A stretch of 64,000 bases of DNA from an uncultured Candidatus Saccharibacteria bacterium (lineage in GTDB: Bacteria > Patescibacteriota > Minisyncoccia > Phycocordibacterales > UBA5272). The translations under genes and the position numbers were made by a program. Every line of letters starts with the position of its first letter. Position 1 is the stretch's first letter. Of the stretch, positions 16,874-48,530 are shown piece by piece. The notes beneath the pieces were generated by a model. It saw nothing but the letters and a program-made list of their open reading frames with translations. It did not search any database and was not told the DNA's origin. The stretch spans positions 2,586-66,585 of the forward strand of contig CAYUDN010000002.1 in assembly GCA_964443675.1 (NCBI GenBank). Reading direction: 5' to 3'.

Positions 16874-16883
16874 AGTATAACTA

Positions 16884-33818: not shown

Positions 33819-34775
33819 GTGCCTATAGTCTTCTTGCGATATACTACAAAGTATATGGAACCAAATGCAATGACAACTAAAAAAGCGCTTCTTGTGGTCG
33901 GGGTGCTTATCTTTTTATTACTTACAACAATGGTGATTCCTGCCAAATACATTGGGGTTACCCCTCAAAAAACAACAGGGATTATTCTTTTGGATGATGG
34001 AGCGATTACCGCTTTAGCCAAAGACAAGAACCGTAACGGAAACCCTGATTGGAGAGATTTACTAAAAGATAACACAAATATCCAAGAACCTCTTACAGCC
34101 CAAACACCAATAGACCCCGCCACCCAAAAAGAACTTGATGACCCCAACAATCTCACCGCATCTTTCGCTAAGAACCTATATACTGCAGCCACCTATGCTA
34201 GCCAAAATGGTGGACTCACCGAAGATGAACAAGCAGCGCTTGCAAGTCAGTTAATTGAGGGGGAGGGTGCCAAAATAACTGTGAAGGTGTACACACTGAA
34301 GGATCTTCATCTTGTAAAGAACGAATCAGAAACATTCATCACTTCTTACGGTAACAATCTTGGCGTTCTCTACAAAAAAGCTGTTGATGAGAAACTTAAC
34401 TCGGACGATACCGTAATACTTAAAGCGTACACAACAAACCAAGACTCTTCTGTTTTGGAAGCGCTCGTAGTAAAAAAGAATAGTTTAGAGACAATGATTT
34501 CTAAACTTATCACTCTTGATGTACCGTACTCTGCAGCAATTTACCATCTTCGTATGCTAAACGAACTCTCAAAGTATAAAAGTGTTGTAGAAAATCTTTC
34601 CACAGCAGAAATCGATCCTATGCGCGCAGCAATAGCAACTAGAGAATATTTTCCGGCACTGAAAAGCGTGAATGGTTCTTTTATTGCAATTGTTGAGTAT
34701 TTTATTAACCAAAAGATCACCTTTACACCGAGCGATCCTGGTGCAATTCTTATGAAAGGGTATACTTCTAAATAA
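33819..34775 (+). CDS. Membrane-anchored hypothetical protein
   Basis: N-terminal TM (ALLVVGVLIFLLLTTMVIPA), then an extracytoplasmic domain. Confidence 0.4.
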   Translation: MPIVFLRYTTKYMEPNAMTTKKALLVVGVLIFLLLTTMVIPAKYIGVTPQKTTGIILLDDGAITALAKDKNRNGNPDWRDLLKDNTNIQEPLTAQTPIDPATQKELDDPNNLTASFAKNLYTAATYASQNGGLTEDEQAALASQLIEGEGAKITVKVYTLKDLHLVKNESETFITSYGNNLGVLYKKAVDEKLNSDDTVILKAYTTNQDSSVLEALVVKKNSLETMISKLITLDVPYSAAIYHLRMLNELSKYKSVVENLSTAEIDPMRAAIATREYFPALKSVNGSFIAIVEYFINQKITFTPSDPGAILMKGYTSK

Positions 34776-34784
34776 TACATCTGT

Positions 34785-36488
34785 ATGAAAAAATATTTAA
34801 ACGTCTTCCTTGTTTTAGGACTAATCTCTTCTTTCATAGGACAAGTTTTTGCATCTGGCGCGATTGCTGGAGCTACAGAAATTACCCAACTACTAAATAA
34901 CGGGGAGCTTCTTGGTGTCAACGTATCTTCTGGAGCAACAGCAATTTCTTCAAATATCTCTGCTGTGGATGCCACCATCGGAAGACCTCTTGTTACCATG
35001 ATGATAAACACCGCTCAACAAAAAGCAGCAAAAGATATTGTTAGTTGGGCAAACGGTGGTTTTAAGGGTGATCCTCTTATTATAAGTGACCCTGGTAAAT
35101 ATATTGGTGACGCAGCTCTCGCTCAAGTTAAGCTTGGATTAGGAAGCCTTCCAAAAAACAGCCCATATTCAGATAGTATTTTTAATAGCCTGGTCGGACA
35201 ATACAAAGACTCTGAAGATCTTGGTGCAAAAATAAACTCTATCACGCAATCAAATATTCCTTCCCTTGTCCAAAAAAACTTTTGTACTGATAGCTCTCTT
35301 ACAGAAAACGCGGTAGCATCTCTTGGGGGAGATATGGCTTCTATTGATCCGAAAGCTCTTCAACAAAAAAAGAAGGAGTTAAAAGACTATGCTTGTAACG
35401 GAAACCCGAACACTGATCAGAAGCTTGCTGCACGTCTGACTGATATTCAATCACAAAACGCTTCTGTTGGTGGATGGGACTCCTGGCTTGCAAAGACCGG
35501 TGGAGATAACGCATACACCAAAAAAGTTCTTGCGACTAACGAAATCAATGCAAAAGCAGCAGCAGAAAAAGATAAGGCACAAAAAGAAATCTACCAAGGA
35601 GCAGGTCCTGTAAGTCAAACCAAATGTCTTAAAACTTCTACAGTAACCAAAACAGGCGAAACTCCTATTTGTGAACCTGGACAAAAGGTCACCCTAACAC
35701 CAGGTAAAACTGTTGCAAGCTCACTTGATAGATCGGCAAACTCTGGTATTGACCGTCTTACTCGTCTCCAAGGAGAGGGTCTTGCTGCGTTTATAATGGA
35801 AAAAGCTATGTCCAGCTTAGTAAGCGGACTTAACTCTGCTTTTAATGGAAGTCAAGGTGGATCATCTTCTGGTTCTAACAACAACCAAACAACTACTGTA
35901 ACCTCTAAATCTCCTCCGACTCAAGACCTTGCTGGAGACGAAGACACAAAAACAGCAATAACTTCTCCTGTTTTTAAAATGCTTGAAAATTCTCAAAGCA
36001 CTTTTGACAGCTTGGAGTCTGTTGATACAGAGTACCTAGCAGAAGTGAACACCTATGCCACAAAGATAGCATCAGGAAAGTCTTGTTATGATTCTCTCAT
36101 CGAAAACAAAACAGTTACTCCTGATAACCCGCAAGTTGTTGCAGCATACTCATTTTATGAAGACCGTCAAAATAGAATCGATATTGTTAAAAGCGCTCTC
36201 ACTCAAGAATTAAAAAAGTTAGCAAATGCAACACAGCTTATAACCACTACAAAAACAAAGCTCAAAGAAACCAACTCTTCTGAAGAAATTAACACCCTTT
36301 ATAACAACTACACTAAAGAAGTAGAAAAAGGGGAGTATCCAACGATAGAGACTTTAGGAAAAAGAAAGGGGGAGTACTCAAAAACAAAAGCGGATATTAA
36401 AAACGATAAAGATGTCGACACTTATCAAACAACTTGTAACCAGATGGGAGGTAATAGTAATGATAATGGCGGGGCAGGTGGAGCATAG
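34785..36488 (+). CDS. Secreted protein (567 aa), first gene of the T4SS-like cluster
   Basis: Signal peptide MKKYLNVFLVLGLISSFIGQVFASG; Cys pairs; no recognised catalytic motif. Confidence 0.5.
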   Translation: MKKYLNVFLVLGLISSFIGQVFASGAIAGATEITQLLNNGELLGVNVSSGATAISSNISAVDATIGRPLVTMMINTAQQKAAKDIVSWANGGFKGDPLIISDPGKYIGDAALAQVKLGLGSLPKNSPYSDSIFNSLVGQYKDSEDLGAKINSITQSNIPSLVQKNFCTDSSLTENAVASLGGDMASIDPKALQQKKKELKDYACNGNPNTDQKLAARLTDIQSQNASVGGWDSWLAKTGGDNAYTKKVLATNEINAKAAAEKDKAQKEIYQGAGPVSQTKCLKTSTVTKTGETPICEPGQKVTLTPGKTVASSLDRSANSGIDRLTRLQGEGLAAFIMEKAMSSLVSGLNSAFNGSQGGSSSGSNNNQTTTVTSKSPPTQDLAGDEDTKTAITSPVFKMLENSQSTFDSLESVDTEYLAEVNTYATKIASGKSCYDSLIENKTVTPDNPQVVAAYSFYEDRQNRIDIVKSALTQELKKLANATQLITTTKTKLKETNSSEEINTLYNNYTKEVEKGEYPTIETLGKRKGEYSKTKADIKNDKDVDTYQTTCNQMGGNSNDNGGAGGA

Positions 36489-36499
36489 GGTAAGACAAT

Positions 36500-36600
36500 A
36501 GATAACAGACACGCTTCGCTAAAGATAAAAGAAAGGGTGGCCGCTTCGCGGCCACCCTTTCTGTATTCTATAAGCGAAGCGATCTGTTGTCTATAGCGAA
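36500..36600. repeat. Intergenic palindromic element copy 1 (nested hairpins around GAAAGGGTGGCCGCTTCGCGGCCACCCTTTC)
   Basis: The central 13-bp perfect GC-rich stem is at 36531-36561. The outer pairing CGCTTCGCT / AGCGAAGCG is at 36512-36520 and 36573-36581. Related copies lie at 40455-40575 and 41085-41165. Confidence 0.65.
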
Positions 36601-36711
36601 GCATGTTTGTTGTCTGTATTCTATATATCTACGCTCTATTATTTCTTTTTCCGTCTTTCACCCAACACCTGCTACCTATTACCTATCACCTATTCATGCT
36701 ACACTACAATC

Positions 36712-39648
36712 ATGCGAAAATTCTCGGTTTTTCTTTGTATCATAACTCTTTCTATCGCTCTTTTTGGTGGGTTTTCTACAATAAAAACATCTGGTGTTGT
36801 TTCAGCTCAAACAAGAGAAAACTTAAATAAATCTACTTATACACACGAAATCGCACAACAACAAGTTCTAAACTTGTTTGATTCTTACCAAAATAATGCA
36901 ATAAACTTTTTAATAGAACAGACAAAAGGATTTACTTCGCAACAAGGAATGGCGGAGGCGAAGGCGCTTGAGGAACTCAAACCAAAACTTACTGCGCTTA
37001 TTTTACAATCTAAAAATATTTATTTAGAAAACTATGATAAATCCTTACCGCCTTGGACAGCACAAATAAACGCAATATCAAAATTACAAGCTTTTTTTGG
37101 TCCCGGTTTTGCAAATTTACGAGTAACATCTAAAGCTGCTGGACTTCTTGCGGTCACTGAAACCTTTAAAGGTAACATAAGGACTGAATTAGAGATAGCG
37201 AAAGCCGTAGAAAGAGGGGAAGGAAGTGGAAACCTAACTTCAAGCACAACTTCTGTAGAGAATGCTGCGAAAACAGTTGCTGCTATTAAAGAAAAATCCG
37301 ATAAAGGAAAATGTACTTTTTGGAACTGGACCATCTCTGATTGTATTTCTGAAGGAGTAACTTGGATTATTAAAGTTGTTTTCCTTCAAATCGCCGGATA
37401 TCTTGTATGGCTCACCGCCAACATGTTCAACTACGCCATGCAATTCGGGGTGCTTGAATTTGCAAAATGGGCACCTAATACTCTTTATCCAATATGGATG
37501 ATAGTAAGGCAAACCATTTCCTTGGTCTTACTTTTTATTGGTATCTATGTGGGGATTTTGTATATCACTGGAGATAACCGTGGTAATTTTGAGCGTTATC
37601 TTCCTTGGTTTGTTATCTTTGCTTTATTTGTTAACTTCTCCTACCCTCTTACAAGAACAGCTATTGATATTTCTAATATCGTAACACTCAAAATGTATGC
37701 AGCAACAATGGGAGAACAAGCGTTATCTGCTAGTATTACCTCCAAAGATACTGCGGGTTTTTTGATCCTACAACGACTCGGTCTTGATAATCTTATTACA
37801 AGCGCAACAGCAGACAGTGCATCAAAAGCGGGAACGAATCTCTATAATTCTATAGACTCTATTCCTGGTGCACTTATTGCGGTAGTGTTTGTGTTCTATA
37901 CCGCATATGTCTTTTTTATGGTAACAGCACTTCTTGTTATGAGAACTGTTGCTCTTGTGTTTATTACCATCGCCTCTCCAATACTTCTTATTGATTCTGT
38001 TATTCCTCTTCTTGGTGATAAAGCAAAAACTGTTCGAGGATTGTTTGTTTCACAACTTTTTGTGGCTCCAGTGTTTGTTATTTTACTTTCGATAACTCTT
38101 AGTTTTATGCAGGTCTTTAGTACACTTAACACTTCATTAACAGGAGCAGCAAAAGGTTCCGGGGAAAGCTCAATAGTTACCTTCTTCAATATCTTGATCA
38201 TGCTCGTAATGCTCACTATTACAGTAAAAGTAACAAAAAGTACCGCCGGCTCTCTTGGGGAACAAGCAACGGAATGGATGGGAAAGGTTGGAGGGTTTGC
38301 AACAGGGGGTGTTGGGGCGCTTGGCCGACAAACACTTGGAAGAGCGGCTGCCAAGTTACGTGACAGCAAGTGGGTAGAAAGGAATCAGAATTCGTTTATT
38401 GGAAGACGAGCGTACGACCTTAGTAACTCCGTTGCGAAGAGTAGCTTTGATCTTCGTAACTCTTCTGTGGTTGCAAAAGGTGCTGGTATGCTTGGTTCAC
38501 AAGGTGGACTCTTTAAGGGTGGAATGGGGCAGGGCGCAAAAACAAACTTTGATGACACTTCCAAAAAACGACAAGAAAAAATCGATGCACGTCTTACAAG
38601 AATCCAAACAAGACATGAGCGCGACGAATATGAAAAGGATGACAAAGGAAAAATTGTCTATGATGCAAACGGCCTTCCAAAAATGAAACACAGAAAGGGG
38701 GATGTTGATCAAGCTGGTGTTGAAGCACGAGACCGTTATGTAGAAAACAAGGGTTCACTTTTTGGTCTTAGTGGTCTCACTGCAAAACAAAAAGAGGAAA
38801 TGGATCAAAAACTCATCGATCAAAAAGAAAAAGAGAGGATGGAAGAATATGGAAAACTAAAAACAAAAGAACAGAAAGCAGCTTACATCGCCAACCTTTC
38901 TCAAGAACTAGAAAAAATAAAAAAAACAAAAGGAGAAGAAAACCTTACTTCTGTTGATGCACGAACTGTCGTAAGTGTACTTCAAAAACTTACCAAACAA
39001 GAAAAAGACAAGCTTGATTCTGGGGCTGCTTACCGTGAAGCGTATAACGAATACAAAAACCTAGAAGACCTTGGGGATGGTGGCAGAAAGATGCGAGAAT
39101 TCTTTGGCAACCAACCAAAAGAAGTGCAAGATTACATTCTTGCAAAAGATCATGGTGAAGCGTTAAAAGATAACGAAAAAATAACAAAACAAAACGAAGA
39201 CAAGGCTTACAGAGAAGCAACTCTACAAAACCAACGAGATGCGGTACAAGCACAAAGAGAATCAACAGAAGTACAAAGAAAGCTCACTGAGGCGCTTAAT
39301 AATAAACAAAACGAGGAAGCAGGAGGAACAACACCTTCTGATAAAGACACAAGAAGGGACAACCCTAACTTCGATACAAGTGGAATGACCTTAGAAACAG
39401 AACGTGCTGCGGAAGCGCGTGTTAGTGGCAAAAAAGAGGAAGAACCTGTTGGAAAACCTGTAAGCTTTGCTTCTACTTCTTCTGGTGGATATGGTGCAAC
39501 GACAGTTACTTTTACCCCACCACAAACTTTTGCTTCACGAATGCAAAAACGAGGAGGCCAGGGGTCGCCTTCGACAGTAACAACTACCACTCCTCCAAAA
39601 AATAATCCTAATACAGAGGCGGAACCGGTAGAGGAGGAAGTTGTGTAG
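36712..39648 (+). CDS. VirB6/TrbL-like polytopic membrane protein with a long charged C-terminal tail
   Basis: Signal peptide, N-terminal extracytoplasmic domain, cluster of about 6-7 TM helices (aa ~240-560), then K/E/Q-rich tail. Architecture and position next to VirB3/VirB4 fit Gram-positive VirB6 analogues. Start taken at ATG 36712. Confidence 0.5.
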   Translation: MRKFSVFLCIITLSIALFGGFSTIKTSGVVSAQTRENLNKSTYTHEIAQQQVLNLFDSYQNNAINFLIEQTKGFTSQQGMAEAKALEELKPKLTALILQSKNIYLENYDKSLPPWTAQINAISKLQAFFGPGFANLRVTSKAAGLLAVTETFKGNIRTELEIAKAVERGEGSGNLTSSTTSVENAAKTVAAIKEKSDKGKCTFWNWTISDCISEGVTWIIKVVFLQIAGYLVWLTANMFNYAMQFGVLEFAKWAPNTLYPIWMIVRQTISLVLLFIGIYVGILYITGDNRGNFERYLPWFVIFALFVNFSYPLTRTAIDISNIVTLKMYAATMGEQALSASITSKDTAGFLILQRLGLDNLITSATADSASKAGTNLYNSIDSIPGALIAVVFVFYTAYVFFMVTALLVMRTVALVFITIASPILLIDSVIPLLGDKAKTVRGLFVSQLFVAPVFVILLSITLSFMQVFSTLNTSLTGAAKGSGESSIVTFFNILIMLVMLTITVKVTKSTAGSLGEQATEWMGKVGGFATGGVGALGRQTLGRAAAKLRDSKWVERNQNSFIGRRAYDLSNSVAKSSFDLRNSSVVAKGAGMLGSQGGLFKGGMGQGAKTNFDDTSKKRQEKIDARLTRIQTRHERDEYEKDDKGKIVYDANGLPKMKHRKGDVDQAGVEARDRYVENKGSLFGLSGLTAKQKEEMDQKLIDQKEKERMEEYGKLKTKEQKAAYIANLSQELEKIKKTKGEENLTSVDARTVVSVLQKLTKQEKDKLDSGAAYREAYNEYKNLEDLGDGGRKMREFFGNQPKEVQDYILAKDHGEALKDNEKITKQNEDKAYREATLQNQRDAVQAQRESTEVQRKLTEALNNKQNEEAGGTTPSDKDTRRDNPNFDTSGMTLETERAAEARVSGKKEEEPVGKPVSFASTSSGGYGATTVTFTPPQTFASRMQKRGGQGSPSTVTTTTPPKNNPNTEAEPVEEEVV

Positions 39649-39690
39649 TGTTTTGTGTACAATTGTGAGCGGTACGTTATACTTACTCTT

Positions 39691-40437
39691 ATGGATACTC
39701 CTTCCTATATTGCTAAAAATACTGAGGAACTTTTTGACAAAGCTCCTAGTTATATACAAAACCTTATCCTTAACGGAGAAGTTGACGCTGTTGTGCTTAC
39801 TCTTGCAAACAACTACAAGCTAACTGTTACAGAACAAGCAAAACTTTCAGATATTATTAGTTTTATTTTGATTGGAGCAATAGAGCCTGGTAACGTTGTA
39901 GAAGCACTACAAGATATGGTTGAAACAACTCCAGAAACAGCACTTCATATCGCAGAAGACCTAGAACATTCTATCTTAGAAAAAGCACGTCTTTCTCTTT
40001 TTAAACCACAAGGTGATGTAAAAGTACTTGAGTATCAAGGAGAAAAAACAAAAGATGAACTACGAAAAGAAATTCTTGATACTACTAAACGTGACTCTGG
40101 CCTTAAGAATAACCAAGCAACGCCTAACCCAAGCGCAAAAAAAACAACAGTCATTGCTCCAGGGTCACGCTCCCAACTTCTCGAACAACTTCAAGTGCTT
40201 AGCTCTATCCCTAACGATGAAGAAATCGCTGCACGTCTTTCCCATATTCAAGAACAAATAGAAACCATAAAAAAACAAGAGGAGGATAATAGTCTTAATT
40301 CACAAATAGCCCTCAAAAGCTTTATGTTTGGAGAAAAAGGTAAAGAAATTGCAGACCCAACAATCAAAAGAGCTACCTACAGTGTTGCACCAACACATTA
40401 TAATGTTGATCCTTACAGAGAAATAGCAGAAGAGTAA
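39691..40437 (+). CDS. Hypothetical cytoplasmic protein in the T4SS-like cluster
   Basis: ORF with Met at 39691 (track start 39655 overlaps the VirB6-like stop). Confidence 0.4.
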   Translation: MDTPSYIAKNTEELFDKAPSYIQNLILNGEVDAVVLTLANNYKLTVTEQAKLSDIISFILIGAIEPGNVVEALQDMVETTPETALHIAEDLEHSILEKARLSLFKPQGDVKVLEYQGEKTKDELRKEILDTTKRDSGLKNNQATPNPSAKKTTVIAPGSRSQLLEQLQVLSSIPNDEEIAARLSHIQEQIETIKKQEEDNSLNSQIALKSFMFGEKGKEIADPTIKRATYSVAPTHYNVDPYREIAEE

Positions 40438-40454
40438 GGGTTAAAAACAGGTAC

Positions 40455-40575
40455 GCTTCGCTATTAGACAACAGATGAAAGACTCGCTTCTCTAAAGAGC
40501 ACAGATAAAGGATGACCGCTTCGCGGCCACCCTATGTATTTGTCTGTAGTCTGTATTCTATTAGCGAAGTAAGTC
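40455..40575. repeat. Intergenic palindromic element copy 2 (degenerate: GGATGACCGCTTCGCGGCCACCC)
   Basis: ACGCTTCGCTATTAGACAACAGA ... GGATGACCGCTTCGCGGCCACCC ... TATTCTATTAGCGAAG. Two mismatches in the 5' half of the stem relative to copies 1 and 3. Confidence 0.6.
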
Positions 40576-40632
40576 TATCACCTATGTTCTGGTATCTATT
40601 TATCTGTTATCTGTCCATGATATACTTACTTT

Positions 40633-41058
40633 ATGCAATTTCGAGTACCACAATTCATTGATATTGAAGATAAAGTAATCGGACCTTTAACTCTAAAGCA
40701 GTTTGGGTACACTTTAGGTGCAGGAGGTTTCTCATTCCTTATTTGGACCTTTATCCCTATTCATTTTTTGGCGGTTATTTTTATTATTCCAGTAGCAGGA
40801 CTCTTTCTTGCTCTTGCTTTTGTGCAATTTAATAACAGGCCTTTTGGTGCTCTTCTTGAAAGCGCTTTCTCTTATTTTACTAGTGCAAAAATATACACAT
40901 GGAAACAACCTGAACCAGAAAAAATGGAAACTTCTGTTGATCACGTGATCGCATCCACACAAAAAGAAATGATTATAGAAAAAACAAATAGGGATAGAAT
41001 ACATGACATTTCTCTTGGTCTTGATGTGTTCGAAAAAAGTAATGCAAAAGAAGAGTAG
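40633..41058 (+). CDS. VirB3/PrgI-like small membrane protein
   Basis: 141 aa. N-terminal FIDIEDKVIGPLTLKQFGY followed by two TM helices. Position immediately upstream of VirB4. Confidence 0.45.
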   Translation: MQFRVPQFIDIEDKVIGPLTLKQFGYTLGAGGFSFLIWTFIPIHFLAVIFIIPVAGLFLALAFVQFNNRPFGALLESAFSYFTSAKIYTWKQPEPEKMETSVDHVIASTQKEMIIEKTNRDRIHDISLGLDVFEKSNAKEE

Positions 41059-41084
41059 GGGGTAGAAAATAGATACACTTCATT

Positions 41085-41165
41085 ACAGACAACAGAATAC
41101 AGACAAATACACAGGGTGGCCGCTTCGCGGCCACCCTGTGTATTCTGTAAGCGAAGCGGTCTTTT
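41085..41165. repeat. Intergenic palindromic element copy 3 (CACAGGGTGGCCGCTTCGCGGCCACCCTGTG)
   Basis: Perfect 13-bp stem at 41110-41140, followed by GTATTCTGTAAGCGAAGCG as in copy 1. Confidence 0.65.
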
Positions 41166-41216
41166 ATCTGTGTTCTATATATCTACCATCTTATTCTTCT
41201 TCTTTCCTCTTTTCTC

Positions 41217-41858
41217 TTGTATACTACAACAAGTATGGCACAAGGAGCATCAAGTCAACAATTCGTACCAATAGAACGTGTTCGTGATGGGGTAGTCGTC
41301 TTAAAAACCGGAGAACTTCGTTCGGTTCTTATTACCAACTCTCTTAACCTTGGACTAAAAAGTGAAGACGAGCAACAGGCGGTACTTGTTCAGTTCCAAA
41401 ACTTTCTCAACTCTCTTGATTTTCCTGTTCAATTTTTTATTGAATCAAGAAAACTTAACATAAAACCTTATATAGAAATGCTTCAAGAAAGAAGTAAGGA
41501 GGTAAAAGAGGATCTTCTTAAAATTCAAATACATGAGTACATGGGATTTATTACCAAGTTTACCGAGGAAAGCAATATTATGACAAAACACTTTTTTATT
41601 GTTGTTCCTTACTTCAACCCTTCTGCACAAGACATTTCTCCTACTTCTGTGTTTTCTGGAACACTCAAAAACAATATGGGTAAAAGTGACGTTTTTGAAA
41701 CAGCAAGAACACAACTAGAGCAAAGAACTCTCACGGTAATACAAGGACTTTCTCGTTTTGGTATACGAGCACAACGTCTTGGTACAGAGGAAGTTATAGA
41801 GCTTTTTTATAAACTTTTTAATCCAAGCGAAGGTACACATAATGCACCTAAAGTATAA
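41217..41858 (+). CDS. VirB4/TrbE N-terminal domain, separated from the ATPase part by a single in-frame TAA
   Basis: VVLKTGELRSVLITNSLNLGLKSEDEQQAVLVQFQNFLNSLDFPVQFFIE resembles the CagE/TrbE/VirB4 N-terminal domain. Same reading frame as 41862-43688, with TAA at 41856-41858. Confidence 0.7.
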   Translation: MYTTTSMAQGASSQQFVPIERVRDGVVVLKTGELRSVLITNSLNLGLKSEDEQQAVLVQFQNFLNSLDFPVQFFIESRKLNIKPYIEMLQERSKEVKEDLLKIQIHEYMGFITKFTEESNIMTKHFFIVVPYFNPSAQDISPTSVFSGTLKNNMGKSDVFETARTQLEQRTLTVIQGLSRFGIRAQRLGTEEVIELFYKLFNPSEGTHNAPKV

Positions 41859-41861
41859 TAT

Positions 41862-43688
41862 ATGGGACTCTTTGATTTTTTATCACCAAAAACAACAACA
41901 CCATCAGCTTCTCCTGTAACTCCCGTTCTTCCTGAGCAGGTGTACAAAATCGCAGAAATGCAATTAAAGGATATTATTGCACCAAGCGCTCTTGAAATAC
42001 AATCAAAATCTCTTAACCTTGGCACTACTATTGTTCGTTCTTTTTTTGTTATCTCGTATCCTCGTTTTCTTACCGATAGCTGGCTAAGTCCTATAATTAA
42101 CTTGGATAAAGTTTTTGATATAGCTATTCATGTTACCCCACTTAACACAGGGGAGGTTATGAAAACTTTTCAACGTAAAGTTGCAGAAGTAGAAAGCCAG
42201 ATCATGTCTAGAGACGAAAAAGGTCTTGTTCGTGACCCTTCTTTAGATGTTGCGTATCAAGACCTTGAAGATCTTCGTGACGGACTTATTCAAGCGCAAG
42301 AAAAAATGTTTGAAGTTTCTTTATACATAACTCTCTATGGAACAACTAACGAAGAGCTTGATAAAGCTGAAAATGAAATAAAAAATATTCTCGAAAGTAG
42401 ACTTGTATATGTAAAACCAGCCCTTTTCCAACAAGACACAACATTTCTCTCCACACTTCCTCTTGGTGTAGATACTGTTCAAATAAAAAACAAACTTAAC
42501 ACTTCACCACTTTCTTCTTTCTTTCCGTTTGTTTCTTTTGATCTTTCATCTGATAGGGGTATTTTGTACGGACTAAACCGCCACAACGGAAGTCTTATTC
42601 TTTTTGATCGATTCTCTCTTGAAAACTATAACTCTATAGTGTTCGCAAAGTCGGGTTCTGGAAAAAGCTACTTCACTAAACTAGAAATCTTACGTACACT
42701 CATGTTCGACACAGAGGTAATCATCATCGACCCTGAACGTGAGTACGAGTTCCTTGCAGAATCTGTTGGTGGTCGATATTTTGACATCTCTTTGGTCGGT
42801 GAACACCACATTAACCCATTTGATCTTCCTCACCCAACAGAAGATGAATCACCTTCTGAGGTGCTTCGTTCAAATATTGTAAACCTTGTAGGACTCTTCC
42901 GTGTCATGCTTGGAGGTCTTACCCCTGAAGAAGATGCAATTATTGATCAAGCTATTACCGAAACGTACGCACTCAAAGATATTAATGGGGATACAGACTT
43001 CACACAACTCGAACCACCCCTTCTTTCTGATTTTGAAATGGTGCTTACTGGTATAGACGGCTCAGAAAGTCTTGTTCAAAGACTAAGCAAATACACCAAA
43101 GGTACTTGGTCTGGATTTCTTAACCAGCCATCTAATGTTGATATCAATAAAAAACTTGTTTGTTTTTCTATTCGAGACATGGAAGATGAACTTAAGCCTG
43201 TTGCAATGTATCTTATTACTCACTTTATTTGGAACGCAGTACGTAAAACATTACGTAAACGTCTTCTTGTGGTAGATGAAGCGTGGATCATGATGAAAAA
43301 TGACGACACAGCATCATTCCTTTTTGGTCTCGCAAAACGTGGTCGTAAATATTATCTTGGACTTGCAACTATTACTCAAGACGTAGGAGACTTTCTTAAA
43401 TCTCCATACGGACTTCCAATTATTACCAACTCTTCTATTCAAATCCTTCTTAAACAATCTCCTTCTTCTATTGATATTGTTCAAAAAACCTTCAACTTAA
43501 CCGATGAAGAAAAGTTCCTCCTTCTAGAATCTGGAGTAGGGGAAGGAATTTTCTTTGCAGGTCTTAAACACGTAGCCATCAAAGTGGTTGCTTCTTATAC
43601 CGAAGACCAGATTATTACAAGTGATCCTTCACAACTCCTTAAGATTCAACAAATGAAAGACGAAGTTGCTCAGTCAAAATCAGTATGA
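41862..43688 (+). CDS. VirB4/TrbE-family type IV secretion ATPase (C-terminal ATPase portion)
   Basis: Walker A FAKSGSGKSYFTK, Walker B LLVVDEAWIMM, and C-terminal motifs typical of VirB4. Confidence 0.85.
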   Translation: MGLFDFLSPKTTTPSASPVTPVLPEQVYKIAEMQLKDIIAPSALEIQSKSLNLGTTIVRSFFVISYPRFLTDSWLSPIINLDKVFDIAIHVTPLNTGEVMKTFQRKVAEVESQIMSRDEKGLVRDPSLDVAYQDLEDLRDGLIQAQEKMFEVSLYITLYGTTNEELDKAENEIKNILESRLVYVKPALFQQDTTFLSTLPLGVDTVQIKNKLNTSPLSSFFPFVSFDLSSDRGILYGLNRHNGSLILFDRFSLENYNSIVFAKSGSGKSYFTKLEILRTLMFDTEVIIIDPEREYEFLAESVGGRYFDISLVGEHHINPFDLPHPTEDESPSEVLRSNIVNLVGLFRVMLGGLTPEEDAIIDQAITETYALKDINGDTDFTQLEPPLLSDFEMVLTGIDGSESLVQRLSKYTKGTWSGFLNQPSNVDINKKLVCFSIRDMEDELKPVAMYLITHFIWNAVRKTLRKRLLVVDEAWIMMKNDDTASFLFGLAKRGRKYYLGLATITQDVGDFLKSPYGLPIITNSSIQILLKQSPSSIDIVQKTFNLTDEEKFLLLESGVGEGIFFAGLKHVAIKVVASYTEDQIITSDPSQLLKIQQMKDEVAQSKSV

Positions 43689-44656
43689 AAATAAAAAAAA
43701 AATTACTTTTTGTTTTTTTAACCACCTCAACTTCTTTTCTTTTTGTTTTTGCTCAAATATCATCAACAATATCATTATCACCAGAAAACCCAGAACCAAA
43801 TAGTACTGTAGAACTCACTCTTGAAAGTTACTCCTTTGACACAGGAACAGCTATGATTACTTGGAAAGTAAACAATAAGATTGTTGCGCAAGGGCAGGGT
43901 GTTGATTCTTACTCACTACCAACAGGTTCTGTTGGTCAATCTACAAAAGTTACCGTGAGCGCAATAACAGGGGACGGTAGTGCAATAGAACAAGAAGTAG
44001 TAGTTACTCCGTCTTCTGTTTCTCTTTTATACGAAGCACCAAAAAGTTATACACCTCTTTTATATAAAGGAAGATCTCTTCCTGGTGACGGAGCTCTTTT
44101 TACTGTTACCGCCTTTCCTCAAATAAGTGAAAATAATACTATTGTTCCACCTTCTTCTTTAGCATACACCTGGTATCTAAATGACTCCATAATGCAAAGT
44201 TACTCTGGGGTAGGTAAACAGTCTGCAGAACTTCGTATTGATTACTTAAGATCAAAAAATACTGTACGTGTTATTGTTCGTAGTCAAAAAGGAAATATTG
44301 CTTCAAAAACAATTACTGTACAACCACATGAACCAATGCCTCTTCTTTATCTTTATGATCCGATTTTTGGTTCCATGTTTACACAACTTGTAGGAAAACG
44401 TTTCGAAACAATAAAAGATTTTACTCTATCTCTTGAACCTTTTTATGTAACACAGGAAGATGAGGGTGACTCATCGGAATATACATGGTTTTTGGATGGA
44501 CTACTTTCTACACCAAGTGATGGGAGGGTTCTTGGGTTCCACCCAAAAGAAAATAGTTACGGAATAAAAAATTTAACTATTAAAGTGTATGGTGCTGATA
44601 GAAGACTTCAACAAACAGAATTAGAAACTGAGATTCTTTTTGATACAAGAAAATAA
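43685..44656 (+). CDS. Secreted beta-rich protein, hypothetical T4SS-associated
   Basis: Signal peptide MKIKKKLLFVFLTTSTSFLFVFAQ. Start overlaps the VirB4 stop (ATGA). Confidence 0.5.
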   Translation: MKIKKKLLFVFLTTSTSFLFVFAQISSTISLSPENPEPNSTVELTLESYSFDTGTAMITWKVNNKIVAQGQGVDSYSLPTGSVGQSTKVTVSAITGDGSAIEQEVVVTPSSVSLLYEAPKSYTPLLYKGRSLPGDGALFTVTAFPQISENNTIVPPSSLAYTWYLNDSIMQSYSGVGKQSAELRIDYLRSKNTVRVIVRSQKGNIASKTITVQPHEPMPLLYLYDPIFGSMFTQLVGKRFETIKDFTLSLEPFYVTQEDEGDSSEYTWFLDGLLSTPSDGRVLGFHPKENSYGIKNLTIKVYGADRRLQQTELETEILFDTRK

Positions 44657-44670
44657 CACTTTATATCTTT

Positions 44671-45495
44671 ATGATAAACGTTTCTTATACAGCCCTCGAA
44701 CAATCTTCACTCACCACACTAGGAATACAGTCAGTTTCTTTTAATAGTGGTAATACTTCTTTCTTTTCTGTTATTAGTTTTTTAATGATGCTTTCTTTTA
44801 TTGCGGTTGTTGGTGTTGCTTCTATCATGATAGTAAAAGGGGGAATGTTGCGTATGAAGGCTTCGGAAGAGTCAATACGTTCTTCTAACGAAGTGTTTAG
44901 ACGTGTGGTATTTGGTGTTCTTGGTGTTTTTAGTTTGTTTATTATTATTACCACTATTAATAGTGGGTTAATTACTGGAGATATTGACTTGGGTAAGTTA
45001 AGGGTGGGGTCGTCAGTCGGAACACCATCTACTGCGACTAAAGAAGCTGCTCAACCTCCAGCAAAAGCCGCAAATGCACCGAGCACAGGTTCAGCAAGTT
45101 GGACAAAAGCAATTCAGCAAGACCCAGAAATAAGAGCGCAGCTAAAAAATAACTCCATCTCTGTTAACAAACCAGCATGCACGAGTGAAGGAGCTTCTAG
45201 TTGTACAACTGTTGGAGGGTTACATAAAGACACAATAGATATGCTTATTTCTTTAAGGAAATCTTGTAGCGGAGAAATAGAAATAACAGGGGGAACAGAA
45301 AATGGACACAGGTCTCACGGTATTGATAAAACACCTGTTGATCTTAGTATAAAGGATGGAACACTGAATGCTTGTATTGAAAAGTTTTCAACCGGTCCAA
45401 ATGTTGGAACTTGGTGTAAAAGAACCTTTACCTCTTTTGGATATATTTTTTGTGACGAGAATAGTGCAACACCGCACTGGCATGTGTATAAGTAA
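44671..45495 (+). CDS. Membrane-anchored (two-TM N-terminal module) protein with a C-terminal putative peptidoglycan peptidase-like domain
   Basis: The N-terminal 110 aa are identical to the N-terminus of the 46833 gene. The C-terminus has GG...SH...D and HWH, reminiscent of VanY/M15-type zinc peptidases (weak). Confidence 0.5.
   Translation: MINVSYTALEQSSLTTLGIQSVSFNSGNTSFFSVISFLMMLSFIAVVGVASIMIVKGGMLRMKASEESIRSSNEVFRRVVFGVLGVFSLFIIITTINSGLITGDIDLGKLRVGSSVGTPSTATKEAAQPPAKAANAPSTGSASWTKAIQQDPEIRAQLKNNSISVNKPACTSEGASSCTTVGGLHKDTIDMLISLRKSCSGEIEITGGTENGHRSHGIDKTPVDLSIKDGTLNACIEKFSTGPNVGTWCKRTFTSFGYIFCDENSATPHWHVYK
44691..45011. repeat. 321-bp direct repeat copy A (identical, one mismatch, to 46847-47167)
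   Basis: Nucleotide-level identity covering the shared N-terminal module of two genes. Confidence 0.85.
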
Positions 45496-45535
45496 CAACA
45501 TTACAGCTATATAATAACCTGCTATACTTACTAGT

Positions 45536-46831
45536 ATGGAAAGTTCTAGTAATAAAAGGATTCTTATTTTGGTTGGTTTTACTCTTTTTTTTGTTATCAT
45601 TGTTCTCGTTTGGTATTTTTTCTATGCAAAACCAGTAATAGACCCAACAAACAACACCACAAGAGATGTAAAGAAAGTTAAAGATCTACCTCCTGGTTTT
45701 CAGTTTATAGAAAAAATCTGGAAAGGTGATCAAACCACAACAACAAAAACAGAAATCATAGATCCTCTCAGTAAACCACTTATTCATGTATGGGATCGTG
45801 GAGCAACAGGAATGTACTTCACCTCCATTCCAATACTTCAAGAAATTAACGCCACAACAACAGAAGGTACAACAACAATTACTGTAAAGAAAACAATTCA
45901 CGCAACATCAAGCGTTCTTATGTTTGTGGACACATTAACAGGGTATGTGTATGGATATGTATTAGATACAGGGAAAATATTCCAAATTACCAACACTTCT
46001 CTTCCTGGAATATCTGATGCGTACATTTGGAACAGTGGTAGAAAAATAATTCTACGTTATATAGATCAAGAAAAAAATAATATTGTCGGAGTTATTGCAA
46101 CTATTGGGACTATTAATCAAAACACAGAACCTTTACCTTTACAAAATATCAAATACCTTAACTCAGAAGTTACTTCTGTTGCGGTTAATAAAACAAAAAC
46201 AGAAGCATCATATATGGTAAGCACAGAAAAAGGAAGTTCTGTGTATACCACAGACGGCGACACTTCTCGTTTTGTTGTTTCTTCTCCTTTTAAAGAATGG
46301 GATCTTTCTTATGGTGGTAATACACTTTACGTAACACCAAAACCTTCTGCGTATGTAGAAGGAAGTACTTTTTCTCTTCCGTATTTTACCTCTGAAATAA
46401 ACAATAAAACAGGTCTTCTGTCTAACCCTGGTGTTTTTGGTGTACTGCTTAGTAGTATGTGGACAGATGACGGGTTACGTACTTTCTTTTCTTCTCATGG
46501 GAATATTTCTGTGCTTCCAATAAAAACACTTGCTACTAAATGTGTTTGGGGTCGCACCTCGTTTGTTGTATGCGCAGTACCAAGAGAACTTCCTGGATAC
46601 ACAGAAGGTCTTCCTGATGATTGGTATCAAGGAAGATACTCTTTTTCTGATGATCTTTTTATTGTTAACCAAAACAATAATGAAAAGTACATGTTATATT
46701 CTTTCTCACAAGAGGATGGAGATTTTGATATTTCTTCTATAGAAACAAATATCGATAACACATTGTATAGTTTTATTAATCAAACAGATCAAAATCTCTG
46801 GCTTCTTAACTCTAACTTACTTGGTGACTAA
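45536..46831 (+). CDS. N-terminally anchored extracytoplasmic protein, hypothetical
   Basis: TM anchor ILILVGFTLFFVIIVLVWYFF; T/N-rich extracellular domain. Confidence 0.45.
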   Translation: MESSSNKRILILVGFTLFFVIIVLVWYFFYAKPVIDPTNNTTRDVKKVKDLPPGFQFIEKIWKGDQTTTTKTEIIDPLSKPLIHVWDRGATGMYFTSIPILQEINATTTEGTTTITVKKTIHATSSVLMFVDTLTGYVYGYVLDTGKIFQITNTSLPGISDAYIWNSGRKIILRYIDQEKNNIVGVIATIGTINQNTEPLPLQNIKYLNSEVTSVAVNKTKTEASYMVSTEKGSSVYTTDGDTSRFVVSSPFKEWDLSYGGNTLYVTPKPSAYVEGSTFSLPYFTSEINNKTGLLSNPGVFGVLLSSMWTDDGLRTFFSSHGNISVLPIKTLATKCVWGRTSFVVCAVPRELPGYTEGLPDDWYQGRYSFSDDLFIVNQNNNEKYMLYSFSQEDGDFDISSIETNIDNTLYSFINQTDQNLWLLNSNLLGD

Positions 46832-46832
46832 A

Positions 46833-47816
46833 ATGATTGAATACAAAGCCCTCGAACAATCTTCACTCACCACACTAGGAATACAGTCAGTTTCTTTTAA
46901 TAGTGGTAATACTTCTTTCTTTTCTGTTATTAGTTTTTTAATGATGCTTTCTTTTATTGCGGTTGTTGGTGTTGCTTCTATCATGATAGTAAAAGGGGGA
47001 ATGTTGCGTATGAAGGCTTCGGAAGAGTCAATACGTTCTTCTAACGAAGTGTTTAGACGTGTGGTATTTGGTGTTCTTGGTGTTTTTAGTTTGTTTATTA
47101 TTATTACCACTATTAATAGTGGGTTAATTACTGGAGATATTGATTTGGGTAAGTTAAGGGTGGGGTCTGGTGATGCTATAACAACAAACAACCTCACCAC
47201 TAAAGAGGTAACAACTTCTTCCAAATCTACCTCTGGAGCAGTTAATGCAGGGTGTCAGAGCAAAGAAATAGTAATTCAAAATATTCAAAACAATGATGCG
47301 TGTAAAGGGGTAAGCTGTTCTGCGTTATTTGGTTGTAATTATTCTTCCTATTTAGCAACCATAGAAAAATATACATCTGGTGATCAAGAGTTAAGAAAAA
47401 TGGCAATTGTAACACTTTGTAAAGAATCAAAAGGTGTACTAACAGCAAATAATAAAAACCCTGACGGAACCTATGATTGTGGTGTTATGCAAATCAACCA
47501 AAAAGATCCTTGTCCTGCTTCGTATGATGTAGATGCTAATATTCAACAAGGAATTAATAAACTACGTTCTCTTAAAAATAATACAAACCAGACATATCCT
47601 GGTTTTCCACGGTGGGGAGGTGTTTTTGCTTCATATAATTGCTGTAGTAATGGAACAGCACCGAACAGTGCAAGTAATGATTGCAACACATCTTCTGGTT
47701 TTCCTGGAAGTGTTCCTAAATGGGGTTGTCCTATTAATCCTGGGGATGGACAATTTAATATGTGCACCGTAAAAAATTACACCTGTGACCTTGTAAAATG
47801 TATGGAGCAGTTATAG
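46833..47816 (+). CDS. Membrane-anchored lytic transglycosylase (VirB1-like SLT domain) sharing its N-terminal module with the 44671 gene
   Basis: SLT family-1 signature: catalytic ES in CKESKG and GVMQIN downstream. N-terminal two-TM module identical to the 44671 protein. ATG at 46833 (track start 46821 is TTG). Confidence 0.6.
   Translation: MIEYKALEQSSLTTLGIQSVSFNSGNTSFFSVISFLMMLSFIAVVGVASIMIVKGGMLRMKASEESIRSSNEVFRRVVFGVLGVFSLFIIITTINSGLITGDIDLGKLRVGSGDAITTNNLTTKEVTTSSKSTSGAVNAGCQSKEIVIQNIQNNDACKGVSCSALFGCNYSSYLATIEKYTSGDQELRKMAIVTLCKESKGVLTANNKNPDGTYDCGVMQINQKDPCPASYDVDANIQQGINKLRSLKNNTNQTYPGFPRWGGVFASYNCCSNGTAPNSASNDCNTSSGFPGSVPKWGCPINPGDGQFNMCTVKNYTCDLVKCMEQL
46847..47167. repeat. 321-bp direct repeat copy B
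   Basis: See copy A at 44691-45011. Confidence 0.85.
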
Positions 47817-48530
47817 CTATCTGAGATGTGCTAATTTGTTCTTCATATACACATCAAGAACATAACTTATTATATTACTCACTGTCCAGTAAAGTGCTAG
47901 TGCAGCGGGAAGGAAGAGTGCTGAAATAGTTAAAATAGCAGGAAGCACATACACCATCTGAACTTTCATAGATTTCATAAAGTGATCCTGGAAAGATTCC
48001 TCTTTTCCTTCTGTCTTCGAACCTATATCAACTGTTTGACGCTTTGCAAGCATGAACGCTGAAACACCAGACAAAATAGCAATGATGGTATTTTTTTGAG
48101 TAACATCAAAAAGACCAAACGCATGAGTATGTAGTGTTTCAGGGAAACTAACAAAAGAATATATTGACTGTGGGTCATTAAATAACCCTTTAGAAAACAC
48201 AAAGTAAAGTGCGAAAAATATTGGTATTTGTAACACCACTACAAAAATACTAGAAAAAGGATTAATGCTATTTTTTTTATATATCTCCACCATTTGTTTA
48301 GAAGCAAGGGCTGGATCCTTTTTTTGCACTTCTTTTATTTTTTCAAACTCTGGTTGTATTTTCTTCATCATGTACTGTGTACGAAGCGCTGACAAATTAA
48401 GAGGAAGAAGTATTCCTTTTACAATAAGAGTAACCAGTACAATAGCGGTACCAATATCATGAAGAGGGACCACTGTAAGGACAATAACAATAAGATTATA
48501 AATTGGTTCGTAGAAAAAAGTATGGAACAT
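47817..48530 (-). CDS. yidC: Membrane protein insertase YidC/Oxa1 (short form)
   Basis: Multi-TM protein with the conserved TM1/loop region (IVLVTLIVKGILLPLNL...KIQPEFEKIKE). Lies in the rpmH-rnpA-yidC arrangement. Confidence 0.85.
   Translation of the reverse strand: MFHTFFYEPIYNLIVIVLTVVPLHDIGTAIVLVTLIVKGILLPLNLSALRTQYMMKKIQPEFEKIKEVQKKDPALASKQMVEIYKKNSINPFSSIFVVVLQIPIFFALYFVFSKGLFNDPQSIYSFVSFPETLHTHAFGLFDVTQKNTIIAILSGVSAFMLAKRQTVDIGSKTEGKEESFQDHFMKSMKVQMVYVLPAILTISALFLPAALALYWTVSNIISYVLDVYMKNKLAHLR

Follow-up and report, generated by a model that had tools for sequence, protein, structure and literature searches.

The window analysed here, a 64,000-nucleotide stretch of DNA, carries a compact group of type IV secretion system (T4SS)-like genes beside the replication origin, which raises the question of what kind of machine these genes encode. 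An earlier note, made from the sequence alone, had proposed a monoderm/CPR-style T4SS, possibly non-conjugative. The monoderm/CPR style was borne out by our analysis, and the literature is in line with the system being non-conjugative. We consider it reasonably probable that these genes represent, in Paceibacteria, the non-conjugative T4SS that Patescibacteria carry on the chromosome and inherit vertically, a system derived from monoderm MPF-FATA conjugation machinery and working as proposed below. This kind of system is already known and was published in 2023–2025 (PMC12102498, PMC10633639, PMC12857230); the note was largely right in its interpretation but had missed that the whole arrangement was already published. 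Possibly new is that the sole pilin-like modules are fused to wall-degrading domains and are near-identical within a genome through gene conversion.

The cluster consists of 11 or 12 co-directional genes (33819/34785–47816) between ksgA and yidC-rnpA-rpmH-dnaA-dnaN. All the ORFs named previously are present on the plus strand and tightly packed, but the start given for the cluster, 34785, was too late: the conserved cluster begins with a 318-aa gene (33819–34775, plus strand), whose position is kept in 35 of 80 related loci, making it the conserved first cluster gene after ksgA. Its product is anchored in the membrane by one N-terminal transmembrane helix, found no match in Pfam or PDB searches, and has a weak TSP3-like Ca-binding motif (family consensus against TSP3_bac, 1.5e-4, below threshold). 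The other flank is formed by yidC (47817–48530), rnpA (48533–48847) and rpmH (48881–49015), all on the minus strand, followed by dnaA (49127–50464) and dnaN (50790–51878). Three DnaA boxes lie at 50565–50624, and the cumulative GC skew has its minimum at 44–52 kb. The claimed position beside the origin and this flank were thereby confirmed, as was a PilB/GspE gene outside the cluster (57735–59465, minus strand). A ComM-like Mg-chelatase ATPase is also encoded in the window. Among window ORFs of at least 150 aa, no relaxase or T4CP Pfam domain was found, in keeping with the reported absence of a relaxase and VirD4, and no VirB8-like (NTF2) component was identified in the cluster. Most genomes do encode VirD4 homologues, generally a long way from virB4 (PMC12102498), and a coupling-protein gene may lie beyond the window.

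The motor of the system is a VirB4 ATPase (41862–43688, plus strand), which matches the CD1110 family model NF045971 at 374.5 bits (1e-111; curated cut-off, 325) and Pfam P-loop_TraG at 3e-25. The closest solved structure is 4AG5 (4.8e-41), with TrwK at 2e-8, and the Walker A (KSGSGKS) and Walker B (LLVVDEA) motifs are both present. The protein is thus a true monoderm-type T4SS VirB4, as had been called, and an FtsK/HerA identity was rejected. Directly upstream lies a TrsD-like gene (41235–41858, plus strand), found in 79 of the 80 loci, whose TAA stop codon is followed 3 nt on by the VirB4 ATG. It encodes a stand-alone VirB4 N-terminal domain, with matches to NF041427 TrsD/TraD (4.5e-8) and to the N-terminal region of VirB4_plasma (residues 102–233, 7.7e-12), both below the curated whole-protein cut-offs. 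The small membrane protein predicted to be VirB3/PrgI-like (40633–41058, plus strand) exceeds the Pfam threshold for PF12666 (1e-8, 36 bits against a cut-off of 27), and its gene is present in 77 of the 80 loci.

The call of a VirB6-like protein (36709–39648, plus strand) was correct as to its polytopic nature and long charged tail, while the TrbL/VirB6 profile was matched only below threshold and through relatives. After its signal peptide come an ecto-domain of some 200 aa, about seven hydrophobic segments (residues 217–506) and a 359-aa C-terminal tail of which 36% is charged; W263, R267, N309, S311, D320, N323 and R412 are invariant in the family alignment. Sub-threshold matches to PF04610 were obtained for 6 of 36 family members (best, 3e-4), and the consensus core aligned with positions 25–212 of the 215 in this profile (3.6e-4, 20.8 bits; cut-off, 25.9). 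The window protein itself had no direct family match and none among PDB sequences. The acidic 260-aa protein encoded next (39655–40437, plus strand), apparently by a gene translationally coupled to the VirB6-like gene, lacks clear transmembrane helices and any Pfam match; its homologues in 18 close loci are 55% identical at the median, and in more distant loci it is barely detectable.

Three further accessory proteins are secreted or anchored. A 567-aa Cys-containing protein with a signal peptide (34785–36488, plus strand) occurs in 13 close loci and in a small number of distant loci; its sole match was NCBIfam TrbJ (2.2e-4, residues 3–59, mostly the leader region), and its family profile matched no PDB sequence. 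The start of the gene for a secreted 323-aa protein with a signal peptide (43685–44656, plus strand) overlaps the VirB4 stop codon, and this gene lies directly 3' of VirB4 in 74 of the 80 loci. Judging from its sub-threshold matches, which were confined to Ig_3, BiPBP_C, PKD and the phage Hoc protein, it probably consists of Ig/PKD-like beta-sandwich domains. A 431-aa protein with an N-terminal transmembrane anchor (45536–46831, plus strand), whose gene was found in 56 of the 80 loci, was modelled with AF2 as a beta-propeller (pLDDT, 85.5; pTM, 0.76) that is probably seven-bladed; Foldseek against the PDB returned generic WD40 and other propellers (approximately 1e-7; TM-scores, 0.45–0.59). 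A VirB8-like identity was rejected, since the model is not an NTF2/VirB8-like fold.

The remaining two proteins had both been regarded as membrane-anchored peptidoglycan hydrolases, a reading that missed a shared VirB2-like module duplicated at 99% DNA identity. Each is a membrane protein with two transmembrane helices, and the two modules are the only VirB2-like ones in the window. Carrier A (44671–45495, plus strand) consists of a T4SS_pilin hairpin (residues ~25–111), a disordered linker (105–140) and a Cys-rich alpha/beta domain (141–274) with conserved E210, H213, D224 and H271; its AF2 model reaches a pLDDT of 77 over the whole chain and exceeds 90 in each of the two folded parts. The C-terminal domain had no match in Pfam, PDB or Foldseek searches and belongs to no recognisable family or fold; we treat the protein as a candidate hydrolase. 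Carrier B (46833–47816, plus strand) joins the module through a linker to an SLT/goose-lysozyme-like muramidase domain and is the VirB1 analogue that had been expected. It scored 19–21 bits against SLT (cut-off, 21.3), 9 of 10 orthologues matched SLT (best, 2.7e-10), and the family profile matched goose-type lysozyme (5.8e-6) as well as EtgA. The motifs E-S, G-[LV]-M-Q and Y-N are invariant, corresponding in carrier B to E202-S203, G221-V-M-Q224 and Y272.

Sequence comparison through relatives shows that both carriers start with a divergent T4SS_pilin module (PF18895). The window module gave no direct PF18895 match in Pfam even at E-values up to 10. An HMM made solely from distant relatives recognised it at 68 bits, the consensus of these relatives matches PF18895 at 1.9e-14, and 57 of 94 relatives match PF18895 themselves. 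In 61 loci, VirB4 is followed downstream by a gene with a pilin module. The module is encoded by a 300-nt direct repeat (44686–44985, plus strand) that is 99% identical to 46842–47141. Among the two-carrier genomes compared at the DNA level, 8 of 9 pairs of modules are at least 97% identical, the remaining pair being 84% identical, and three further pairs share 95–100% protein identity. Because modules compared between genomes are only 38–53% identical, these data indicate that gene conversion homogenises the modules within most genomes having both carriers, the 300-nt repeat being the conversion tract in the window. If so, both modules would have to be compatible with one common partner or polymer.

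The intergenic gaps of the cluster also contain a GC-rich palindromic hairpin, GGGTGGCCGCTTCGCGGCCACCC, at 36530–36562, with further copies at 40509–40533 and 41105–41145; all three lie in T4SS gaps, for which the chance expectation is 0. A 54-nt promoter-like repeat comes after the first copy (36605–36658) and again after the third (41159–41212). This hairpin sequence was not found in the 80 related loci, and terminator-like hairpins of other sequence occur 3' of the 567-aa gene in several close relatives.

Relatives were present on at least 582 genome contigs, and the locus comparison covered 80. All 80 belong to Patescibacteria and share a common gene order, uvrD-ksgA-[cluster]-yidC-dnaA-dnaN-pbp1, which is kept across many Paceibacteria lineages. 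VirB4 was 71–93% identical in all 80 loci. At matched distance its median identity was 73%, against 50% for DnaA, 47% for KsgA, 35% for YidC and 30% for DnaN; this higher conservation points to strong purifying selection on the cluster ATPase and to vertical inheritance.

The gene set, comprising a split VirB4 (TrsD-like protein and ATPase), PrgI/VirB3, an extended VirB6-like protein and secreted or anchored accessories with Ig-like and beta-propeller domains, allows a working scheme to be proposed. By analogy with known VirB3, VirB4 and VirB6, PrgI would attach a hexamer of VirB4 to a membrane platform formed by the VirB6-like protein. The pilin hairpins of the two carriers bear extracellular C-terminal domains, one an SLT/lysozyme-like muramidase and the other Cys-rich with conserved His, Asp and Glu. 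VirB4 may extract these modules from the membrane and assemble them, as with VirB2 elsewhere, so that wall-degrading domains would be displayed on the surface of the cell or on a short structure resembling a pilus. Peptidoglycan would thus be opened for assembly of the apparatus and probably also at host-cell contact. To our knowledge, polymerisation of a pilin with a 130–200-aa C-terminal domain has no precedent. Going by Tn-seq in Saccharibacteria, the system would serve a host-dependent lifestyle, through molecule exchange or uptake, rather than plasmid transfer; epibiotic growth of a Saccharibacterium requires the T4SS and its pilin array (PMC10633639; PMC12857230).

The pilin module could be nothing more than a two-helix membrane anchor. 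Both carriers would then be ordinary VirB1-type hydrolases cutting the cell's own wall for the channel, without a pilus or enzyme display, which we regard as possible though rather unlikely. PrgK, TraG and TcpG of Gram-positive T4SSs are N-terminally anchored hydrolases of this type. Membrane anchoring and the combination of SLT and peptidase domains are established for Gram-positive VirB1 analogues (summarised in PMC12102498), the module carries SLT or NlpC/P60-like Cys-His domains in related loci, which is the classic VirB1 domain pair, and the lack of a direct PF18895 match in the window points the same way. However, the homology with T4SS_pilin through relatives covers the full-length profile, and in distant loci the module stands alone or carries non-enzymatic cargo (coiled coils, Cys-rich domains), which better suits a carrier or pilin; nor would a plain anchor obviously need identity between paralogues.

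We find it improbable that the cluster imports DNA or nucleotides in the manner of archaeal Ced or Helicobacter ComB, feeding a cell unable to make nucleotides. Nucleotide synthesis is indeed missing in Patescibacteria (PMC10633639), the window lacks a relaxase and T4CP and contains PilB and the ComM-like ATPase, and VirB4 has a weak partial match to CedB (NF041017, 1e-9, 37.5 bits). That score is far under the cut-off of 700, however, and the match is attributable to the ATPase fold common to both proteins; no CedA-like or ComB-specific component was recognised. In addition, competence in Saccharibacteria needs type IV pili and ComEC, and comEC deletion is viable whereas the T4SS is essential (PMC12857230). 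Least probable, and in our view very unlikely, is a degenerate integrated conjugative element left near the origin by chance. VirB4 is of the conjugative monoderm type and a tyrosine recombinase gene is present in the window (13273–14226), but the latter lies 20 kb off with housekeeping genes between. The cluster genes are all intact and tightly packed, with a GC content like that of the surroundings. In 80 loci drawn from across the class the cluster has the same neighbours on the chromosome, and its ATPase is more strongly conserved than DnaA.

Taken as a non-conjugative Patescibacteria T4SS, the cluster resembles the MPF-FATA conjugative systems of Firmicutes (pCF10 Prg/Pcf, pIP501 Tra, CTn2 CD1110 family) in its CD1110-family VirB4, PrgI, TrsD-like protein (as in pGO1) and membrane-anchored SLT hydrolase. 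In contrast to these systems, it does not lie on a mobile element; searches revealed no relaxase, T4CP or VirB8-like (NTF2) protein, and VirB2-like modules, absent from Gram-positive systems, are present. These modules share with Gram-negative VirB2/TrbC pilins and PF18895 a hydrophobic hairpin of two helices joined by a positively charged loop, and differ in the lack of a direct Pfam match, in a conserved non-hydrophobic N-terminal stretch of ~30 aa in place of the signal peptide, and in the linker and 130–200-aa folded domain that they bear.

The T4SS of the Saccharibacterium Southlakia epibionticum ML1 (SEML1_0006–0019; Wang et al. 2023, Cell, PMC10633639) likewise combines Gram-positive-like subunits with VirB2-like pilins, lacks a recognisable relaxase or coupling protein among its clustered genes, and has hydrolase genes downstream of virB4. 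It has an array of six sequence-divergent free pilins, whereas here two near-identical modules are each fused to an enzyme-like domain; the two bacteria belong to different classes, and it is for the ML1 system that essentiality has been shown. Quinonero-Coronel et al. (2025, Microb Genom, PMC12102498) described a Patescibacteria VirB4 clade with TrsD, PrgI, VirB6 and VirB2-like pilins, rare relaxases, a VirB1 linked to virB4 in Paceibacteria, and a dnaA/dnaN/rnpA/ksgA/rpmH neighbourhood. The window cluster shares with this arrangement its chromosomal location, MPF-FATA ancestry, TrsD upstream of virB4, PrgI/VirB3, VirB6-like, VirB1-like and VirB2-like elements, the absence of a relaxase and all five neighbouring genes, and the differences are not essential. 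Features beyond that description are the union of the VirB2-like module with the VirB1-like domain in a single protein, the concerted evolution of the modules within genomes, and the conserved presence of a beta-propeller protein and an Ig-like protein in the cluster.

The 608-aa protein encoded at 41862-43688 scored 374.5 bits against NCBIfam NF045971 (VirB4-like conjugal transfer ATPase, CD1110 family; cut-off 325) and matched Pfam P-loop_TraG at 3e-25. Its closest solved structure is 4AG5, the C-terminal domain of a Gram-positive Thermoanaerobacter VirB4 (4.8e-41), behind which TrwK of R388 ranks at 2e-8. Matches to HerA/DUF87 were much weaker than those to the VirB4 family, and thus the ATPase does not group with FtsK/HerA, part of the outcome that the earlier note had named as refuting its T4SS-like reading; judged by these matches, the protein is unambiguously a VirB4 of the monoderm (FATA) type. 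Directly upstream, 41235-41858 (+) encodes a TrsD-like stand-alone VirB4 N-domain (TrsD/TraD, 4.5e-8; VirB4 N-terminal region, 7.7e-12), which was found in 79 of the 80 nearest related loci. In the window, the two genes share a reading frame, with only TAA TAT between them before the ATG (41856-41864); a fusion of TrsD to VirB4 by read-through of the stop codon was rejected because the frames differ in most relatives. The VirB3/PrgI-like protein claimed previously was recovered at 40633-41058 (+), which exceeds the Pfam threshold for the PrgI family (PF12666, 36 bits; cut-off 27).

The gene at 36709-39648 (+) encodes a protein with a signal peptide, an ecto-domain of ~200 aa, ~7 hydrophobic segments and a tail of 359 aa with 36% charged residues, a layout that agrees with the "extended VirB6" mentioned in a review (PMC12857230). 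No direct match was found in Pfam or NCBIfam, and a profile search of PDB sequences with the family returned only low-complexity matches to the tail. TrbL/VirB6 was matched by six of the 36 members of the family alignment built from the loci (best 3e-4), and the membrane-core consensus aligned with nearly the whole profile at 3.6e-4, its 20.8 bits lying below the cut-off of 25.9. We consider the VirB6-like call probable but not established.

Among the window ORFs of at least 150 aa, no Pfam domain of a relaxase or of a VirD4- or TcpA-type coupling protein was detected, as the earlier note had stated for the 64 kb. A VirB8-like protein (NTF2 fold; PrgL/TraM/TcpC type) was sought with profiles of the anchored 318-aa protein at the upstream end of the cluster (33819-34775; found in 35 loci) and of the secreted 323-aa protein that directly follows VirB4 (43685-44656; 74 of 80 loci), and neither found one; the latter gave only sub-threshold Ig/PKD-like matches. 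The best-placed candidate for a VirB8-like fold, the anchored 431-aa protein (45536-46831; 56 of 80 loci), was ruled out by its AF2 model (pLDDT 85.5, single TM helix), which matched many propellers in Foldseek at ~1e-7. The protein is predicted to be a beta-propeller, probably a seven-bladed one, and not the missing VirB8. The predicted propeller and the Ig-like protein would be two conserved accessory members absent from current models. A VirB5/TrbJ-like role for the secreted 567-aa protein (34785-36488) was unsupported, its sole signal being an NCBIfam match of 2.2e-4 on the leader region, and its profile found no match among PDB sequences.

The genes between ksgA (31645-32439) and yidC (47817-48530, - strand) are co-directional, tightly packed and on the + strand, and rnpA, rpmH (48881-49015), dnaA and dnaN also flank the cluster. 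Between dnaA and dnaN, the interval 50565-50624 holds three DnaA boxes, among them the sole perfect box of the window, and the minimum of the cumulative GC skew falls at 44-52 kb; therefore, the cluster ends ~2.7 kb from the likely origin, and the position beside yidC-rnpA-rpmH-dnaA described previously is confirmed. One genome per species was scanned for VirB4 relatives, which occurred on at least 582 contigs, and the best 80 were compared. By similarity ranking, these 80 are all Patescibacteria records with 71-93% identity, mostly labelled as Paceibacterota or Parcubacteria lineages; the few other CPR labels look like mislabels. The window DnaA clusters at 90% or more with proteins of Paceibacterota MAGs. 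The order uvrD-ksgA-[cluster]-yidC-(rnpA)-dnaA-dnaN-pbp1 recurs in almost every one of the 80 loci that is long enough to show it.

Across the 62 more distant loci (L019-L080), full-length VirB4 had a median identity of 73% (range 71-76), against 54% for TrsD, 50% for DnaA (49127-50464), 47% for KsgA, 39% for PrgI, 35% for YidC and 30% for DnaN; choosing loci by VirB4 similarity somewhat favours the VirB4 value, but the gap is still large and the range narrow. Sequence conservation across these 62 loci is markedly higher for the VirB4 ATPase than for the replication initiator, which provides a measure of constraint. Plasmid or ICE carriage was not found, the same housekeeping neighbours being present across the 80 loci. 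Judged by conservation and neighbourhood, the cluster is a core, vertically inherited locus under strong constraint and not a mobile element.

A shared module, overlooked previously, lies at the N-termini of two proteins of 274 and 327 aa, designated as carrier A (44671-45495) and carrier B (46833-47816), both of which have folded C-terminal domains. The module, ~110 aa long, comprises two long hydrophobic helices and a positively charged loop and is modelled as a helical hairpin; no other pilin module was found among window ORFs of at least 40 aa. A profile of the carrier family retrieved 2145 cluster representatives (E <= 0.001) among 1.84 billion proteins. Pfam T4SS_pilin (PF18895) was matched by 57 of 94 distant relatives, exactly at the module position (best 7.4e-13), and TrbC/VirB2 by two of the 94; the consensus of the relatives' modules matched PF18895 at 1.9e-14 (53.9 bits; cut-off 26.6). 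An HMM built from relatives with the window protein left out gave 68 bits for both window modules. Because the window module itself has no Pfam match in a direct scan, its assignment as a VirB2-like T4SS_pilin through relatives is transitive, but by these scores solid.

Both modules are encoded by a direct repeat of 300 nt (44686-44985 and 46842-47141, 99% identical). Within genomes, the first 230-360 nt of the two carrier genes share at least 97% identity in eight of the nine two-carrier genomes, the window included, and 84% in the remaining one, whereas between genomes the modules share just 38-53% protein identity. Paralogous modules with 95-100% protein identity and different C-domains also occur in another three genomes, of which two are more distant. 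Near-identity within genomes against divergence between them points to repeated gene conversion confined to the module, and this clear signature implies a need for the modules to fit one another. An assembly artefact was rejected as the source of the repeat, since independent assemblies repeatedly show paralogous modules that are nearly identical.

The earlier note had read the two carriers as membrane-anchored peptidoglycan hydrolases, one of them SLT-like, and this stands for carrier B. Carrier B scored 19-21 bits against SLT, just below the Pfam cut-off of 21.3; nine of ten orthologues matched SLT (best 2.7e-10), and the family profile matched goose-type lysozyme (5.8e-6) and also the T3SS muramidase EtgA. 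E202-S203, G221-[LV]-M-Q224 and Y272-N are invariant in the family. By these family matches, we take the SLT/lysozyme-like character of the C-domain to be real. The hydrolase claim was weaker for carrier A, whose C-domain had no match in Pfam, in PDB sequences (searched with a single sequence and two profiles) or in Foldseek against PDB and BFVD. It has conserved cysteines and is modelled as a compact alpha/beta domain (pLDDT > 90); almost all members of the wider family share E210, H213, D224 and H271. A LAS/M15 zinc peptidase (LAS-fold H-x(n)-D plus H-x-H) was proposed from motif order alone and rejected, the Pfam, PDB and Foldseek searches being negative; hhalign of the C-domain against a second motif-similar family from related loci gave a probability of < 1%. 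In related loci, the positional counterpart of carrier A has the same N-terminal module followed by a predicted NlpC/P60-like Cys-His domain, which would give indirect support to a wall-directed role for carrier A. Some relatives, such as P0317, combine the pilin module, a carrier A-type C-domain and SLT in one protein.

In 61 loci, a pilin-module gene is found downstream of VirB4. The close clade of the window typically has enzyme-like cargo on the module; outside it, the cargo varies or is absent. In other Paceibacteria, where cargo types were read from the sequences alone, the same module appears to carry NlpC/P60-like Cys...His domains (L016:12793-13611, L057:13757-14839, L054:3479-5206), a family with the pattern TE(A/G)(F/Y)PP...H...C(H/Q)...C(V/I/F)D...HF(S)(V/I)Y (L044, L045, L047, L061, L069), long Ala/Gln-rich coiled coils (L053, L073, L075, L078) or small Cys-rich domains (L024, L025, L048).

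Within the cluster, a GC-rich palindrome with a UUCG-type loop, GGGTGGCCGCTTCGCGGCCACCC, occurs in three copies (36530-36562, 40509-40533 and 41105-41145), confined to the intergenic gaps of the T4SS cluster. Two copies are followed by a shared promoter-like stretch of 54 nt (36605-36658 and 41159-41212), and the start codons (ATG) of the VirB6-like and TrsD genes come just 7-12 nt after a -10-like TACACT or TATACT, a spacing that points to very short leaders. A conserved regulatory role for the GC hairpins was rejected, as the copies are identical within this genome only and absent from the 80 loci.

Elsewhere in the window, the stretch 11278-17369 (-) encodes a tyrosine recombinase (13273-14226) adjoining a GHKL-type ATPase protein (HATPase_c_3, 14335-15993), a 640-aa protein without a Pfam match (11278-13200), a 256-aa protein and an HTH protein (16884-17369), with GC content up to 0.456 at 14-16 kb; it may be an integrated or defence island. 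A low-GC stretch (2000-6100; 0.32-0.33) holds a 449-aa ORF without a Pfam match (3084-4433) and a Fic/DOC protein (5165-6040). Large ORFs of 1172 aa (23915-27433, between an M23/LysM peptidase gene and uvrD) and 856 aa (61420-63990) have no meaningful Pfam match. At 30229-31623 (GC 0.46), in the uvrD-ksgA gap, ORFs of 326 aa (+) and 419 aa (-) overlap on opposite strands; the former has no Pfam match, and neither has a counterpart in related loci. The separate PilB/GspE ATPase noted previously is present at 57735-59465 and, with a ComM-like Mg-chelatase-family ATPase (20853-22520), is typical of the type IV pilus/competence set of these bacteria, distinct from the T4SS.

The model that follows builds on observed features: gene content and its conservation, the absence of conjugation genes from the vicinity, the module-plus-cargo architecture and gene conversion. 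By analogy with established T4SS biology, PrgI/VirB3 would hold a hexamer of VirB4 at the VirB6-like platform, and the ATPase would pull pilin-type hairpins out of the membrane; the machine would thereby bring the pilin-module proteins to the cell surface or beyond it, together with the muramidase and the other enzyme-like domain that they carry. Peptidoglycan would be opened for the assembly of the machine itself and probably also at host contact. Among T4SSs, that of Patescibacteria is the only one known to be indispensable to the cell that carries it. In a Saccharibacterium, Tn-seq showed that epibiotic growth requires the T4SS and its pilin array (Wang et al. 2023, PMC10633639), and these genetics suggest host-dependent life rather than DNA transfer as the overall purpose.

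The main rival is that the hairpin merely anchors ordinary VirB1-type assembly enzymes. We consider a DNA import machine and a decayed ICE far less probable. The CedB model scored the window VirB4 at 37.5 bits (cut-off 700) and no partner protein of DNA-import T4SSs (CedA/ComB) was recognised; import is disfavoured because competence in Saccharibacteria uses type IV pili and ComEC (PMC12857230), and decay because the locus is fixed in the chromosome across the 80 loci. Returning to surface placement of the pilin-module proteins, a bolder and in our judgement unlikely extension is that Paceibacteria assemble subunits with covalently attached, interchangeable cargo into a VirB2-type filament or a membrane-extracted array, giving an enzyme-decorated pilus that breaches the host wall at contact, with gene conversion keeping the modules of one genome identical so that all cargo fits one polymer. 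The cargo types predicted so far include muramidase, Cys-His peptidase-like, Cys-rich enzyme-like, coiled-coil and small Cys-rich domains. If pilin modules do carry cargo out of the membrane, this would be a new way of enzyme delivery by a T4SS; the two carriers, with their defined predicted extracellular domains, can be expressed and assayed on peptidoglycan.

Compared with conjugative MPF-FATA T4SSs, the window cluster has no match for their relaxase, coupling protein, VirB8-like protein or plasmid/ICE carriage. Published work describes a monophyletic Patescibacteria VirB4 clade nested in MPF-FATA, in which TrsD is the most frequent partner, along with PrgI/VirB3, VirB6 and VirB2-like pilins, VirB1 homologues with linkage to virB4 occur chiefly in Paceibacteria, relaxases are near-absent, T4CP genes usually lie far from virB4, and the T4SS of Paceibacteria and Microgenomatia lies near dnaA, dnaN, rnpA, ksgA and rpmH (Quinonero-Coronel et al. 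2025, PMC12102498). Features of these systems found in the window are a FATA-type VirB4, a separate TrsD, PrgI/VirB3, a VirB2-like module, a cluster free of relaxase and coupling protein, and the dnaA/dnaN/rnpA/rpmH/ksgA neighbourhood. A 2025 review recognises these systems as a new branch of the T4SS superfamily (PMC12857230). The earlier interpretation as a Gram-positive/CPR-style, possibly non-conjugative T4SS was mostly right, and since systems of this kind have been published, the locus is a new instance and adds no new kind. No mention of pilin-hydrolase fusions was found in the literature searched. The predicted hairpin topology fits VirB2/TrbC pilins, but those are small, processed, polymerising proteins, whereas here folded C-domains are attached. 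The pilin arrays of other Patescibacteria classes are divergent, with 25% identity on average (PMC12102498), and thus the concerted behaviour of window-type modules, near-identical within a genome, differs from that of the published arrays; with their fusion and concerted evolution, the pilin modules extend this branch modestly but in a way that can be tested.
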